IMG/VR virus record: IMGVR_UViG_3300033146_004198
Location: 1 to 31,372 of that record
Source of the DNA: a virus
Lineage: Duplodnaviria > Caudoviricetes
DNA length: 31,372 bases
Direction: 5' to 3' (one strand)
Shown: positions 3,074 to 31,372 of the stretch, in pieces
Layout of the letters: the number at the start of each line of letters is the position of its first letter
How positions within the stretch are numbered: position 1 is the first letter of the stretch
Program-made: the position numbers and the translations under genes
The notes under the pieces: model-generated
The model's input: the letters and a program-made list of their open reading frames with translations, nothing else
What the model was told of the DNA's origin: nothing
Databases searched by the model: none

Positions 3074-3151
3074 TTTGTTTTCTTATACTCATTATACAAC
3101 ATTTTTTATTAATTTATTTTAATTTTCACTTTTTTTTCAAATTCTTTTAAA
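3074..3151 (-). promoter_or_regulatory. Early promoter cassette
   Basis: 3074-3103 is identical to 7920-7949, and 3091-3151 is nearly identical to 654-714. Confidence 0.8.
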
Positions 3152-3859: not shown

Positions 3860-4354
3860 AACATTACCTAAACCAAAGGTGAGGTCTTAAAGTCCCTGAT
3901 AGCAGTTAGAATAGCCATTATTGAAAAAAGCTTAGGTGAGGTCTTAGGTGAGGTCTTCAAATGCCTCTATATAGGGTCTAACAGCAACTTTTTCTTAAGA
4001 CCTCACCTAAAAAGTGTCCAACTTCTTATATATTTTATATTTTTTATCTTTTTTTTCTTTTTTTTAAACAGTTTAAGTAAAATATATAATTATTTAATAA
4101 AATAAAGTCTAAACCCCTCTCTATGAGATACTTTGAAGACCTCACCTAAGACCTCACCTAAGATTTTTCTTTTTCTCTTAAAATAGTGGCATAAAAGCCT
4201 ATACAATGGACATCTTAGGACATTACCTAAAACATTACCTAAAGCTCTTAAAAAAAAGAGAGAATTAGCCCTTATTTTTTTAAAAAAAGAGTAGTTGTAG
4301 TTGTAGCAGAGGGATTTGAGTAGAAAAAAAAGACATTACCTAGACCTCACCTAA
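3860..4354. other. Putative replication origin with 12-bp iterons GAC(C/A)T(C/T)ACCTAA
   Basis: About 11 copies: 3860, 3876(-), 3932(-), 3944(-), 3999, 4138, 4150, 4219, 4231, 4332, 4343. A 31-bp perfect inverted repeat (3931-3961/4132-4162) flanks an AT-rich core. Confidence 0.75.
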
Positions 4355-5024: not shown

Positions 5025-5043
5025 GATAGTGATAATCATTATC
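5025..5043. promoter_or_regulatory. Fur box 1
   Basis: GATAGTGATAATCATTATC, 18/19 match to the consensus GATAATGATAATCATTATC. Confidence 0.75.
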
Positions 5044-5494
5044 GAAGAATAATAGAAATAACATGTTGTGATTTCATATTTCAGTATATTTAAATAGCCT
5101 TTTAAAGAGCTTTTTTATTATTGTTACTAAAATACACACATAAAAAGTATTTTATTAACAATAAATTTAACAATAATAAAAACTGATTTTTAAGTATTAT
5201 TATAGAAATATAAAAATAAAAAGCTATTTAAGATAAGAATAAGCCCATTACAAGGCAAATACTATTTTATATATTAACTGCTGCCAGTTTCAAAAGAATA
5301 TTTGTTTAAGACCTTTATTCAAAAAAAAGCGTTTTATTTAGTATAATTATTATATTTAATAAAAAGATTTTTATTCTCTGATAATAAATGTAATAATAAA
5401 TACCTTTTTATTTAGTATAATTATTAGGTATAAAAAAAACACCTTTTTGTTAATGTAGTAATTTTGTAGTAATTTAATTTTTAAAAATCTATTT

Positions 5495-5513
5495 GATAAT
5501 AATAATCATTATC
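5495..5513. promoter_or_regulatory. Fur box 2
   Basis: GATAATAATAATCATTATC, 18/19 match. Confidence 0.75.
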
Positions 5514-5872
5514 GATAAAGATAAAACAGTTTTTATTCTATGATAGTATTAATAGTATTAAAAATCTTTTTATTTATATTAGTTATATTGTTTAAGAAAA
5601 AATTAAGTTTTATTGTGTTACATATTTACACATATTAAAAACCTTTTTATTTGTTGTAATAATATATGCAAAAATTATTTTTATATTCTGATGATATAAT
5701 ATTTGTATAGTTTCTTAAGCTAATATACTAATAATATATATTAAACAAAACTCTTTTTGTTTATGTTATAATTATCAGAGAATTAAATAGCAGTTTATTT
5801 AGTGTTAGTAATTACAGTAATTAAATATCTTTTTGTATAGTGAATATGAATAAGAATAAAATACTCTTTCTC

Positions 5873-5891
5873 GATAATGATTATTATTATC
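5873..5891. promoter_or_regulatory. Fur box 3
   Basis: GATAATGATTATTATTATC; reverse complement is an 18/19 match. Confidence 0.75.
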
Positions 5892-6157
5892 AATAAAGAA
5901 AAATATATTTGTTTATAGTAATTATATTAGATAATAAATAGGTTTTTATTCTGTGTTAATTATATGGTATAATAAATAGCATTTTATTTAGTATGAGAAC
6001 AACAACCCTTAAAAGCTTTTTTATTCTTATTGTTAAATGTATTAAATAAAAACCTTTTTGTTTATATATGTGAGAGATATGGAAGTTATATAACTAATTA
6101 AAAAGCTTTTTATTTAATATATATATTATTAGTAATAAATAACTTTTTTGTTGTAAC

Positions 6158-6176
6158 GATAATGATTATTATTATC
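6158..6176. promoter_or_regulatory. Fur box 4
   Basis: GATAATGATTATTATTATC; reverse complement is an 18/19 match. Confidence 0.75.
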
Positions 6177-6258
6177 AACAAACTTATTTAAAAAGATTTT
6201 TATTTAATATATTATCATGGTTAATTAAAAGCTTATTAAAAAGCTTATTTATTTAAAC

Positions 6259-6277
6259 GATAATAACAATCAATATC
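6259..6277. promoter_or_regulatory. Fur-like box 5
   Basis: GATAATAACAATCAATATC, 16/19 match. Confidence 0.6.
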
Positions 6278-6400
6278 AAATAGATATTTATTTATATATT
6301 AAGTATTAGAATTAATAAAAAGATTTTTTGTTTTGTAGTAGAACAATATGTTAAATAAATTTATTTTTTATGGGAACATAAACAGTTTATTAAAATCTTT

Positions 6401-6444
6401 TTTATTTATTATTTATTTATTATTTATTTATTATTTATTTATTG
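6401..6444. repeat. 11-bp tandem repeat (TTTATTTATTA)x4
   Basis: Units start at 6401, 6412, 6423 and 6434. Confidence 0.9.
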
Positions 6445-6762
6445 TTTAATTAAATAAGTTTTTGTTGAGTGTTAAGACTACCCCACCCTAGAAATAGTTT
6501 TTGGGTATGGGGAAATTAGCCAAAATATAATCTGAAGATTTTAAGTCCATATCCTTTTGGAGTATACAATAAATATTTATTTAATTATATACCCAGGAAT
6601 AACACAAGTAACTGTTATCAAACAAATATTTATTAAGTGAGTAATTAGTTGAATTAAACTTTTATTTGATTACAAGGCATTATAGAGGTATAAATAAATA
6701 GTATTTTTATTTAATTAATAGAACATCAAACAAGAAAGAACAAAAATCCTTATAATTTAAAC

Positions 6763-6781
6763 GATAATAACAATCAATATC
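6763..6781. promoter_or_regulatory. Fur-like box 6
   Basis: GATAATAACAATCAATATC, identical to box 5 including the upstream ATTTAAAC. Confidence 0.6.
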
Positions 6782-6836
6782 AATAAGAAAGAAAGATTTT
6801 ACATTATAAAGTATTAAAAAAGAATATATCTTTCTC

Positions 6837-6855
6837 GATAATGATTATTATTATC
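6837..6855. promoter_or_regulatory. Fur box 7
   Basis: GATAATGATTATTATTATC; shares the CTTTCTC and AATAAA flanks with box 3. Confidence 0.75.
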
Positions 6856-7901: not shown

Positions 7902-8014
7902 TTGTAATCCTTTGTTTTTTTTGTTTTCTTATACTCATTATACAACATTAAAAATAAAAGTGTTCTTAATTTTAAAAGAATTTGAAAAAAACTTAAAATA
8001 ATTAAAAAAAACAT
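7898..8014 (-). CDS. Small hydrophobic peptide, 38 aa (not in ORF track)
   Basis: MFFLIILSFFQILLKLRTLLFLMLYNEYKKTKKTKDYK. It has AAGGA 8 nt upstream, a TATAAT near 8047-8052, and a TGA overlapping the HNH ATG. Confidence 0.4.
   Translation of the reverse strand: MFFLIILSFFQILLKLRTLLFLMLYNEYKKTKKTKDYK
7920..7949 (-). promoter_or_regulatory. Early-type promoter of the HNH gene
   Basis: 30 bp identical to 3074-3103. Confidence 0.8.
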
Positions 8015-13297: not shown

Positions 13298-13319
13298 TAT
13301 GTTATACTATGGTAAGAAA
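13298..13319 (+). promoter_or_regulatory. Extended -10 promoter (22-bp conserved)
   Basis: TATGTTATACTATGGTAAGAAA upstream of the scaffold gene RBS. Confidence 0.8.
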
Positions 13320-13993: not shown

Positions 13994-14803
13994 ATGGCAT
14001 TTAAAAAAACAATATGGTCTGATAAATTTGAGGCAAATTTATACGCAAAGAAACCTTTGATTCAAATAGTTAATCAAGATTTTGAAGGTGAAGTAAAAAT
14101 GGGTGAAACAGTTAAGGTTTATACTTATGGTCAAGCAGTAACAGTTTCAGATTATGATGGTGTAACACCAGTTGCAGCACAAAAGATGGCTCCAGATTCA
14201 GTTAGTCTATTAATTGATCAAGCAAAAACTTTCAGATTAAGAACTGATAGAGTTGATGAGCTACAAGGTGATCCAAATGCTATTGATAAATTTTTAACAT
14301 CAGCAGTGGATTCTGTAGGTAATGTTATTGAAAATTATATATATGCTTTAAAAGCAAGTTTAACTAATGATTTAGATAAAACTGGAACAGTTATGACTGC
14401 AGCTAATGCAATTTCTATCATAGAAGAAGCAGAAGTAGCATTAGATGATGAAAATGTATCAGAAGATAGATTTATGTATGTAACAAATTCAATTTATAGT
14501 ATGTTAAGACAAGCTAATTACTTAAATGTAACTCCTGCGGTAGATGATGGTAATGGTGGAACAAAAAATGTTTATAAAATGGGTAACTTTGAAATAGTTA
14601 AATCAACTAATATTAAAGATAATGGAACAATAGTTGAAATATTATTTGGTTCAAAAGATTGTATAAATTTTGTTGGTGCTTTAGAAGAAATAGAGTATGG
14701 AAAAGTTGAAGGGCTTTTTGGTAAAGCTGTATTTGGTCTATTTGTTTATGGTGCTGCTGTATTCAATGGTAAAAAAGGTGGAACACTTACTTTAAGTGTA
14801 TAA
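13994..14803 (+). CDS. Major capsid protein (P22-coat-like, HK97 fold)
   Basis: IWSDKF..VNQDFEGEVKMGETVKV, LDDENVSEDRF, and GLFVYGA motifs. Confidence 0.92.
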   Translation: MAFKKTIWSDKFEANLYAKKPLIQIVNQDFEGEVKMGETVKVYTYGQAVTVSDYDGVTPVAAQKMAPDSVSLLIDQAKTFRLRTDRVDELQGDPNAIDKFLTSAVDSVGNVIENYIYALKASLTNDLDKTGTVMTAANAISIIEEAEVALDDENVSEDRFMYVTNSIYSMLRQANYLNVTPAVDDGNGGTKNVYKMGNFEIVKSTNIKDNGTIVEILFGSKDCINFVGALEEIEYGKVEGLFGKAVFGLFVYGAAVFNGKKGGTLTLSV

Positions 14804-14808
14804 TAATT

Positions 14809-14842
14809 ATGAAATAGGTATTAAATTCAATACCTATTTCAT
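14809..14842 (+). terminator. Terminator hairpin after the capsid gene
   Basis: 14-bp perfect stem ATGAAATAGGTATT/AATACCTATTTCAT. Confidence 0.8.
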
Positions 14843-14898: not shown

Positions 14899-14920
14899 TA
14901 TGTTATACTATGGTAAGAAA
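14899..14920 (+). promoter_or_regulatory. Extended -10 promoter of the moron 14939-15326
   Basis: The conserved 22-mer, with an upstream AAGAACACTTTT also seen at the HNH promoter. Confidence 0.8.
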
Positions 14921-14938: not shown

Positions 14939-15187
14939 ATGATACCAACTAACACATATTTAATAGATATAAAAACACAAAAAATTTTCACAGTCCCACT
15001 TAAATTAGTTCCTTCTCTATTATCAAGTTATAAAGATTTCAGAATTTTACAAGATTATAAACACGAATTAGCAGAAAAAGTAAAAGAAAAATTTGAAGAA
15101 AAGAAACAAGCTGAACAAATTAAACCAAAGAGGAAATACACTAAAAGAAAAGATAAAATAAAACAAGGTTTAGAAAATGAAAAATAA
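14939..15187 (+). CDS. Hypothetical basic protein
   Basis: 82 aa with an AAGGA RBS and a KPKRKYTKRK basic tail. Confidence 0.75.
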   Translation: MIPTNTYLIDIKTQKIFTVPLKLVPSLLSSYKDFRILQDYKHELAEKVKEKFEEKKQAEQIKPKRKYTKRKDKIKQGLENEK

Positions 15188-15326
15188 AATATTAGAAAAA
15201 TTAAAAGATAAAAGAACAAGGTGTATAACATATACAAGAGTAATGGGATACCATAGACCAGTTGAAAGTTTTAATTTAGGGAAAACTGGTGAACACAAAG
15301 AAAGAAAACAATTTATAGAAAAATAA
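15177..15326 (+). CDS. nrdD: Stand-alone NrdD C-terminal glycyl-radical peptide, 49 aa (not in ORF track)
   Basis: MKNKILEKLKDKRTRCITYTRVMGYHRPVESFNLGKTGEHKERKQFIEK contains the RVxGY glycyl-radical motif and the FNxGKxxExxER tail. It has an AAGG RBS. Confidence 0.9.
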   Translation: MKNKILEKLKDKRTRCITYTRVMGYHRPVESFNLGKTGEHKERKQFIEK

Positions 15327-15364
15327 TAATATAATTAATTATAAATAATAAAAAGGAAATAAAA

Positions 15365-15745
15365 ATGTTAGTAATCACAGGAGAAGATGTAATTAATTTT
15401 ATGCCAGTTATAGAAGAATATTCAGGTTATGATAGAGATAATACAGTTTTTGATAAATATATAACTGCTACTTCAATAGAGTTAGGTAATTCACTATTAG
15501 TTGAAGGTATAGATTATTCAGAAGATATAATACAAGATAGTCCTTTATATAAAGAATTATATTTAAAAACATTAGTATGTAAATACTATAATGAAACTTC
15601 ATATAATGTAGAACCTGATGAAAGATTTATTAATTTTTTATGTAGTGAGCAAAAATCTTTTTTAAATTCATTTATTAAATCAGTAAAAGATGATGGAGAA
15701 CCATCTACATTTGATGGTCAAATTTCAGTTAGATTTTCAGGATAA
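15365..15745 (+). CDS. Head-tail adaptor (putative)
   Basis: Assigned from position, size and acidic composition. Confidence 0.55.
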   Translation: MLVITGEDVINFMPVIEEYSGYDRDNTVFDKYITATSIELGNSLLVEGIDYSEDIIQDSPLYKELYLKTLVCKYYNETSYNVEPDERFINFLCSEQKSFLNSFIKSVKDDGEPSTFDGQISVRFSG

Positions 15746-15754
15746 GGATAAAAA

Positions 15755-16108
15755 ATGGCTTTAAAATCTTCTGTATTAAAAAGACTTGAAAAAAATACTA
15801 AAAATTCAAATGTAAAGAAAAAAACATTAAATTTAATAGTAAAACAAATGAAAAAAAATATTAAAACAGAAAAAGATATAAATAATAAAAAATTTAAAAA
15901 AAGAAAAACTGATAGAGATAATAAGATTTTATATGATACTGGTAATTTATATAAAAATATTAAATTAAAATCAAATAGAATAACATTACCTTTATATGGT
16001 ATTTTTAATAATAATGGAACTAAAAATATAGATAAAAGAGAATTTATACCTACATCAGGTAGTAAAAATTTAAAAATAATAACACAAACATTAAAAAAAG
16101 GATTATAA
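15755..16108 (+). CDS. Virion morphogenesis / neck protein (Mu gpG-like)
   Basis: ILYDTGNL..YGIFNNNGTKNIDKREFI matches the LxDTGxL..YAxxHxxG...IPxRxF pattern. Confidence 0.8.
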   Translation: MALKSSVLKRLEKNTKNSNVKKKTLNLIVKQMKKNIKTEKDINNKKFKKRKTDRDNKILYDTGNLYKNIKLKSNRITLPLYGIFNNNGTKNIDKREFIPTSGSKNLKIITQTLKKGL

Positions 16109-18290: not shown

Positions 18291-18635
18291 ATGAAAAGCT
18301 TACAAGAAACATTAATTAAAATTATTGAAACAAATCATAGTTTTAAATCTAATGAATTCATAGGAAATTCTAATAAATGTAAAACTGTTAGAGTTGAATT
18401 TAAAAAATCTACTACAAAAAATAAAAAAGAATTAAATACTAAAACAAATTTATTTTTAAAAGATATTATGAAAAATTTTAAAAATATTAATATTGATATA
18501 AGAGATTATATATATTTTGAAATAGTTAATATTTGTGAAATACCTAATGAAAAAAATTATATGGAAGAAAATGTTGTTAGTGTAATAATTAGATTTTTTA
18601 ATAAAACAGAGGAGAGATATAGTGAAAAAGTTTAA
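18291..18635 (+). CDS. Hypothetical moron protein
   Basis: 114 aa with an RBS and its own promoter. Confidence 0.75.
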   Translation: MKSLQETLIKIIETNHSFKSNEFIGNSNKCKTVRVEFKKSTTKNKKELNTKTNLFLKDIMKNFKNINIDIRDYIYFEIVNICEIPNEKNYMEENVVSVIIRFFNKTEERYSEKV

Positions 18636-30318: not shown

Positions 30319-31372
30319 TTAAAATATATCTATATAAGAAAAATCAATCTTCATACATTTTTTTGTCATCTTATATTTAGGGTGATACTGACTTTTAATT
30401 TTACATTCAAACAGTTCTTCAACCTTATCAGCTTTATATTGTGAAGTTTTCTTAAAGTTATTATCTTTACTTTCTTGAATTAATACTCTAAAAAGTTCTC
30501 CTGGTCTAACTATATATAAAAAACTATTATTATCTTGTACAGAAACATGAACAAAATCTGAATATCTTTTATCATAATCATTATTTAAAGAATCGATTGC
30601 TAACTCTTGTAATCTTTCTTTAAAAAACTCTTTAAGATTAGTCATTAAATCATTATTCATACCAATTCTATTTTCAGAATGAACTTTTATAAGAAAATTA
30701 TGTGCTTCAATATCACTTTTTCTTTTTCCCATTTCTTTGTATCTATTTATTTCTTTTTTTACCTGACTTAATATATAATGTTTTAATATATTAATATAAG
30801 AGTTAGCACCTATTTTTTTAAATTCAGGTAAATCATCTATTCTTTTTGCTTCAGGAAGTTCAAATATAGTTAATCTTTCTTGAATTTGAGAATCAACATA
30901 ACCAGTCACAGATGAACTTTTTTCAGCACTCAACATAATCTTAGCAAACATATCAATTTCAACATTCATTCTACCCTTTGGGTTAATTGAAGCATAATTT
31001 GTTATATCTTTCATTTCTGATTTAAATATTTTAAATTCATCTTCAAATAAAAACATTTTACCTACTAAATTTTCAGGAGTTACAGCAGATCTTGCTTCTA
31101 ACATTGAAGCAAAACTTGGAACTTTTGCAGCTAAACCAATATCTTTATAACAATCCATCCAAAAACTCTTTCCAAAGTTAGCAGGTAATATAAAATTAAA
31201 GAAACTTGTCTTTCTACTGGATGCAAACATACTTGCAACTATTAATTTATTAAATAAATCAAAATATTTATTAAATTTAATATATTCTGTTAAAACAGAT
31301 TCAGCACTTTTTAAATCTTCATTACTTAATTCAGGGATAGGTAAATAATTTATATCATTATTAAAGATAAGA
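30319..31372 (-). CDS. 3' part of the SF3/D5-like helicase (ATPase domain)
   Basis: Walker A-like LPANFGKS, Walker B MFLFEDE, motif B'-like INPKG and motif C-like KIMLSAE. In frame with 623..1. Confidence 0.8.
   Translation of the reverse strand, partial: LIFNNDINYLPIPELSNEDLKSAESVLTEYIKFNKYFDLFNKLIVASMFASSRKTSFFNFILPANFGKSFWMDCYKDIGLAAKVPSFASMLEARSAVTPENLVGKMFLFEDEFKIFKSEMKDITNYASINPKGRMNVEIDMFAKIMLSAEKSSSVTGYVDSQIQERLTIFELPEAKRIDDLPEFKKIGANSYINILKHYILSQVKKEINRYKEMGKRKSDIEAHNFLIKVHSENRIGMNNDLMTNLKEFFKERLQELAIDSLNNDYDKRYSDFVHVSVQDNNSFLYIVRPGELFRVLIQESKDNNFKKTSQYKADKVEELFECKIKSQYHPKYKMTKKCMKIDFSYIDIF
31259..31372. repeat. Terminal direct repeat (circular assembly overlap), copy 2
   Basis: Identical to 1-114. 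Confidence 0.97.

Follow-up and report, generated by a model that had tools for sequence, protein, structure and literature searches.

The window, the whole 31,372-nt stretch of viral DNA analysed here, carries a gene for a 49-residue peptide that corresponds to the glycyl-radical loop and C-terminal tail of the class III ribonucleotide reductase (RNR) NrdD. There is about an even chance, judging from sequence comparison, that this peptide is an optional extra radical-carrying subunit for the split anaerobic RNR of the host, and that its gene is host-derived. Related bacteria encode the radical tip of the enzyme separately, which makes it likely that the phage provides additional copies of the part that oxygen destroys. 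The gene, mini-nrdD (Table 1), is real: the open reading frame (ORF) claimed in an initial annotation, made from the DNA letters, is found on the + strand together with the stretch quoted from it.

Table 1. Coordinates of mini-nrdD and of the features around it in the window.
Feature	Position	Strand	Remarks
Major capsid protein gene, upstream context	13994..14803	+	
Hairpin after the capsid gene, likely terminator	14809..14842		-15.6 kcal/mol, z -4.4
Phage promoter-like 21-mer, extended -10 type	14900..14920	+	identical at 13299 (+), 18250 (+), 1456 (-)
82-aa Lys-rich ORF, no known family	14939..15187	+	native to the phage group: collinear 75-aa ORF in L239
mini-nrdD, 49-aa stand-alone glycyl-radical loop and C-terminal tail of class III RNR	15177..15326	+	profile matches, alignment
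188-nt segment: gene and 38-nt spacer, the latter holding the next gene's ribosome-binding site	15177..15364	+	absent from L239
Cys16 codon	15222..15224	+	near-invariant in stand-alone peptides; Thr in 5/7 one-chain relatives
Gly24 codon, predicted radical site	15246..15248	+	aligns with Gly711 of P. copri NrdD via one-chain relative P0124
126-aa ORF, no family match, head-completion protein by position	15365..15745	+	downstream, same predicted transcript

The peptide matches Pfam family PF13597 (NRDD) at model positions 533-562 of 562 (E 3.4e-6), its 26.4 bits lying only just above the cut-off of 26.2, and TIGR02487 at 550-580 of 581; its PHROG match is phrog_4132, of unknown function. It covers the last ~31 positions of NrdD. 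The RxxGY glycyl-radical loop is present as RVMGY (residues 21-25), within the pattern R-x-x-C...TRVMGYHRP...FN.GK..E that stand-alone mini-NrdD proteins share, in an ORF of 45-70 aa with an N-terminal helix. The 10-stranded barrel of whole NrdD with its finger-loop cysteine is absent from the peptide, and the window contains no body; the Zn ribbon that precedes the radical loop is absent too, and is located at the end of the host body. Of the initial label, an unannotated glycyl-radical domain, the radical loop stands; 'domain' is overstated, as the ribbon stays in the host protein, and 'unannotated' holds in part, databases labelling relatives as NrdD or hypothetical.

A word-index search (E<=0.001) returned 711 related proteins of 26-86 aa, the best 120 of them 73-91% identical to the peptide, and a profile search with the peptide gave 990 representatives at E<=1e-10, of which the 150 listed are 49-109 aa long. 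Gly24 is kept in all 119 near matches and in all 147 parsed representatives (149 examined), Cys16 in 119/119 and 144/147 of these stand-alone peptides. The role of Cys16 may be guessed to be that of a tether, perhaps located at the Zn site. The subfamily also has one-chain members (P0124-P0131), and 7 of the 11 longer matches are one-chain forms. An alignment via P0124 places Gly24 at the radical glycine region of NrdD from P. copri and T. maritima; the available text of PMC11226230 names Gly711 and Tyr712 for the P. copri enzyme. An AlphaFold model of the peptide alone, of low confidence (pLDDT 66, pTM 0.33), consists of a helix and then a hairpin turning at residues 23-24; a fold search with it returned nothing at E<=0.001. 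The tail of the natural one-chain relative P0124 is modelled with pLDDT <50, and a PDB sequence search with the peptide gave 0 matches. The GC3 of mini-nrdD, 0.12, is near that of the phage genes (0.05-0.12) and below that of six host copies (0.18-0.40).

Campylobacterota encode a split class III reductase, with a body, a separate peptide and NrdG2. In the best 80 genome loci, nearly all titled Campylobacterota and taken from at least 496 relatives among 600 stretches, the peptide is 69-83% identical to the phage copy; a body motif lies upstream in 75 and is fused to the peptide in none, and an NrdG motif is found in 73. Three host bodies tested are NF006126/TIGR02487 members that end at model position 549-555 of 581, right after the Zn motif, and the peptide spans 549/550-580, the very part they lack. 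One host activase tested is an NrdG2. These loci confirm the small separate NrdD C-terminal proteins that the initial annotation had named for Campylobacterota, and they answer its proposed check of the hosts: nrdD is split there.

Co-occurrence of body and peptide was assessed in a sample of 301 genomes from the class around G001: both parts are present in 146, one (G166) has a body fragment only, and 154 have neither in these searches. In eight genomes the peptide gene and nrdG are distant from the body or located on a different contig, beside a redoxin gene; at these unlinked loci (L206, L207, L211, L214, L218-L221) the adjoining gene is thiol-peroxidase-like, an oxidative-stress context. 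Because the two parts are unlinked there, the host peptide is a separate protein. Fusion to the body by frameshift or readthrough was rejected: the frame is variable, 38-916 nt separate the body stop from the motif, genes intervene in 5 of the 80 loci, and the same eight genomes have the parts unlinked. At L070:4157-4967 two genes, one of them SufU/IscU-like, separate the peptide gene from the nrdD body; similar gaps occur in L046, L052, L056 and L090. The peptide was also found by tblastn on 161 plasmid records, among which the body/peptide/NrdG layout was checked for pHG1 only. On this plasmid, Cupriavidus necator H16 has a split enzyme with a 676-aa body, a 66-aa peptide and NrdG (H16_RS32680/32675/32670); the body (L240:13618-15648) is without RxxGY, which occurs in the downstream 66-aa gene.

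As first annotated, mini-nrdD lies between the capsid and neck genes, the Neck1-like gene being at 15755-16108, and its first 11 nt overlap the upstream ORF. The promoter-like 21-mer at 14900-14920 has four identical copies in the phage against 0.01 expected, the other three lying upstream of the scaffold gene, of an ORF at 18291 and of the sigma-like gene. A generic sigma-70 scan missed this promoter, and the short pattern TGNTATAMT barely exceeds chance (14 against 9). A second class of near-identical promoter-like elements occurs at 642-664, 3079-3101 and 7925-7947 (-).

The closest relative found, L239, shares 73% identity in the terminase, 69% in the capsid protein and 58% in the 126-aa ORF. 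Its gene order is capsid, a 75-aa ORF collinear with the 82-aa ORF of the window, then directly the 126-aa ORF. The two small ORFs match weakly as proteins (blastp E 0.015), and collinearity of the DNA extends from the promoter region as far as the next start. The peptide profile has no match in the whole L239 record. Scans of viral contigs with the capsid protein and the 82-aa ORF found no relatives, and Atlas matches of the latter are all <0.9, leads at most. Because L239 has the collinear upstream ORF and is without the 49-aa gene only, the comparison identifies mini-nrdD as an insertion of one gene into a native structural operon; its absence from the corresponding L239 site holds for this single gene and for one relative compared. 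We infer from the cellular origin of the gene that the event was a gain; two genomes cannot root it. The initial description, a two-gene moron with its own promoter, has to be abandoned: the promoter is one of the four identical phage copies, common to native operons, L239 keeps the upstream ORF, and no terminator-like fold follows mini-nrdD (z +0.98).

The window is that of a tailed phage, with terminase, scaffold, capsid, neck, tube, tape measure and tail genes. The record has a 114-nt terminal repeat and a CheckV completeness of 42%; L239, 30,852 bp long, likewise has a terminal repeat and an equal 42%, so ~31 kb is probably full length. A primase/helicase-like gene runs over the terminal repeat (30319-31372 and 1-665), consistent with a circular assembly. 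In a tblastn search of the record, two host bodies and two NrdG as queries produced one match only, at E 0.44, and a PF13597 search of the whole record had no match at E<=0.001; the earlier statement that the genome holds neither an NrdD body nor NrdG agrees with both searches. No integrase match was found among the window proteins scanned, and Rfam and tRNA scans found nothing. The host is likely a member of the Campylobacterota, judged solely by the relatives of the peptide and by low GC.

Viral copies were collected by a single query (41 loci) and by profile (382 stretches, of which 80 were taken); the two sets overlap. The flanks of the 41 loci hold no body or NrdG motif. The peptide is intact in 79 of these 80 stretches, the exception, L147, being without the Cys and adjoining a body, and a body is absent from 9/9 viral records searched whole, two of them >170 kb. 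Selection was estimated on a 35-codon core from 38 of the 41 loci that could be parsed (36 unique sequences), leaving out the broken L041 as well as L011 and L015, in which a Val is changed to Cys. All 630 viral pairs have pN<pS, and dN/dS is 0.105 over 23 unsaturated pairs, an estimate biased by the word-seeded retrieval, which favours conserved copies. By this measure the phage copies are under purifying selection, with Gly24 kept. The initial annotation had set this outcome against erosion beforehand, and a dN/dS of ~0.1 speaks for selection. We rejected the reading of mini-nrdD as an eroded nrdD fragment on account of the selection and the kept residues.

A poorly resolved tree (138 columns; 95 rows left after thinning 173) requires 13 label changes, and a single viral clade is rejected (AU p 0.0015); it is consistent with repeated capture of the peptide gene by phages. 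Once captured, the gene persists in phages, since 56 of 64 phage copies have another phage copy as nearest. Extra copies outside the operon, 19 in number, were found in 16 of the 146 genomes with peptide and body, all in a prophage-like context, and none in the 154 genomes without both parts (Fisher p 6e-6, uncorrected for kinship). Fourteen of the 19 are intact and five broken; 15 stand beside lysis-type genes (holin-like, GH108 or DUF5675, the last of which we take to be an endolysin), three in Mu-like early regions and one near tail genes. An attP-type replacement copy was rejected, as the prophage copies are located within late or early operons and the hosts have intact copies at other sites. 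Among 26 hand-picked contexts, 24 have a same-strand ORF within 40 nt of the peptide gene and ten a PHROG lysis match within two ORFs (88 of 139 neighbours scanned). Endolysin-homolog loci of body-positive genomes have the peptide gene alongside in only 15 of 71 cases, and the 14 body-negative genomes with endolysin homologs in none.

Some copies carry distinct lesions. In prophage copies L229, L230 and L231 (about 1480-1760) a short palindromic, repeat-like element breaks the gene at the glycine codon, probably through one event, and L227 has a nonsense codon. Phage copies L228:1400-1700 and L041:4975-5200 have an identical 7-nt insertion just before the glycine codon. At L032:3726-4724 a reverse transcriptase gene (PHROG match) lies just upstream of the peptide gene, and L033:2888-4159 is similar by eye; the arrangement looks like a diversity-generating retroelement.

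In one-chain NrdD, the activase puts the radical on a C-terminal glycine, and O2 cuts the chain there. By analogy, host NrdG2 would activate Gly24 of the phage peptide, which would dock in the barrel beside the MCCR finger loop. Oxygen would then destroy the peptide only and spare the body, which would make the peptide the consumable part. Co-transcription with the structural genes would replenish it during ongoing phage DNA copying in a low-oxygen host. The word 'repair' used at first needs nuance: in these hosts the peptide would be the ordinary radical subunit rather than a reserve part for a one-chain enzyme that has been cleaved.

Several results support a spare subunit. The peptide is exactly the part that host bodies lack, and body and peptide co-occur; Gly24 is kept under purifying selection; a single insertion placed the gene downstream of a native phage promoter; and the extra copies follow the two-part enzyme, although the genomes are not phylogenetically independent. 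A precedent for pyruvate formate-lyase (PFL), namely YfiD and T4 Y06I, points the same way in the available text of PMC13450708. Other results count against it: five of 19 prophage copies, plus L041, are broken; the gene is missing from L239 and from most endolysin loci; no match occurs among 50,697 cultured phage records; and the usual late or lysis-operon position is unexpected for DNA-precursor genes. The gene is optional for the phage. The radical reported for the C. necator body also weighs against a radical-carrying peptide.

That radical, in the work of Siedow et al. 1999, was reportedly assigned to G650 of C. necator NrdD, with loss of function in G650A; it is the main published conflict with a radical on the peptide. 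In the corresponding alternative, the host body holds its own radical glycine, that of HGY, and the peptide is merely accessory or regulatory. We consider this highly improbable. G650 sits within a C-x-x-H-G-Y...C-x-x-C motif, which by alignment is the Zn site position of solved NrdD structures (PMC4493059, available text), so G650A may have damaged the Zn site; moreover, the C. necator body is without RxxGY, and it is the glycine of the peptide that aligns with the known radical glycine. An inhibitor or decoy, whereby excess late peptide titrates NrdG or fills the barrel unproductively and halts host dNTP synthesis, would suit the late or lysis-operon position and a phage that supplies neither body nor activase. 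It is decidedly unlikely, given that phage copies keep the invariant residues of host copies, including the glycine that a decoy could drop, and about 80% identity to the host subunit.

The gene could otherwise be a weakly selected passenger, a compact sequence repeatedly picked up at insertion-tolerant late-operon sites and kept by intermittent benefit only, for instance as an extra radical subunit in the lysogen. Its presence or absence between close phages, the broken prophage copies and the many related lysis cassettes without it speak for this, against which stand the low dN/dS with synonymous sites near-saturated among phage copies, the prevalence of phage copies as nearest neighbours, the lack of an integrase match among the window proteins scanned and the lack of a promoter of its own here; we hold it unlikely. 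Quite improbable is a lysis-linked role, such as redox-timed lysis together with holin and endolysin and apart from dNTP supply: the lysis-type neighbours of 15/19 prophage copies and of ten hand-picked contexts suggest it, but lysis cassettes move as modules, so these counts are not independent, no such cassette surrounds the gene in this phage or in the three Mu-like prophages, and the gene is absent from all 14 body-negative genomes with endolysin homologs.

As a spare subunit, mini-NrdD would resemble GrcA/YfiD of E. coli and Y06I of phage T4, autonomous glycyl-radical cofactors of PFL (PMC13450708, available text): small stand-alone proteins that bear a glycyl-radical enzyme's radical glycine and of which a phage copy is known. 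The likeness drawn initially is supported in principle, and the peptide is indeed separate from the catalytic body. In contrast to these cofactors, it belongs to the NrdD family (PF13597, its only Pfam match, with none to the PFL-type Gly_radical; no GrcA model of NCBIfam matches), has 49 aa and is known from sequence alone; its partner body in no case encodes a radical loop itself, so that the peptide would be a normal subunit and not a back-up. With one-chain NrdD and NrdG (P. copri 8p23, T. maritima 4coi/4u3e, T4 1h78; the NrdD compared is of the NF006126/PRK08270 type, with the MCCR finger loop) it shares the RxxGY loop and tail, aligned with their C-terminus, but it is without barrel, ATP cone and Zn ribbon and adds the N-terminal helix and conserved Cys16. 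Cellular nrdD(body)-mini-nrdG2 operons (Campylobacterota and pHG1, known from database entries) encode the same peptide, from which the phage copy differs in standing alone in a structural operon. Two-part RNR genes also include the class II NrdJa/NrdJb of Pseudomonas aeruginosa (PMC4520616) and phage nrdD genes split by introns or inteins (PMC3653736); the former are of a different class, the latter are due to mobile elements with both parts in one genome, and the available text of neither describes a radical-loop peptide. Mini-NrdD may thus be seen as a variant of the autonomous glycyl-radical-cofactor idea, neither a GrcA member nor a whole NrdD, with a putative function in the phage.

A split class III RNR whose radical peptide is a separate protein, or a phage copy of that peptide, is not described in the text available from PMC9669993, PMC13450708, PMC3653736, PMC4390871, PMC5645315, PMC11226230, PMC12662201, PMC4520616, PMC2795772, 10.1101/2025.01.15.633287, PMC4493059, PMC3019208 and PMC2864759; most subscription papers fall outside this search, and supplements might list split nrdD genes. 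According to the available text of a 2026 review, spare parts are known for formate lyases only, and their existence for non-PFL glycyl-radical enzymes is yet to be determined (PMC13450708). With a two-piece class III RNR that question becomes open to direct test; such an enzyme could also account for the way in which microaerophiles retain an O2-cleavable protein, and it would put the radical site of C. necator H16, the one split enzyme studied genetically, in a new light. The broader picture, which we judge as probable as its contrary, is a widespread class III RNR with a detachable, Cys-tethered radical cartridge of ~50 residues, captured alone and repeatedly by phages as a 150-bp metabolic gene that is often placed in holin-endolysin or structural operons. 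Such a cartridge would be the first radical part known to be replaceable in a glycyl-radical enzyme that is not PFL, and for phage biology its gene would be a very small auxiliary metabolic gene. In viromes, 'nrdD' calls can mean a 50-residue peptide and not an enzyme.

Other features of the phage concern its regulation and replication. It encodes a sigma-70 region 2 protein (710-1432) and HU (1818-2108). A Fur-box-like pattern has 13 strand matches in the window against 0.15 expected, with seven sites at 5025-6855, within a 3.9-kb stretch without long ORFs. Two such sites likewise occur in the matching region of L239, and other short degenerate repeat families are present in the 5025-6855 region; the cluster is possibly a regulator-binding or decoy array. 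At 3860-4354, a 12-nt iteron-like repeat occurs in ten copies and both orientations (0.36 expected), and this array is a likely replication origin.
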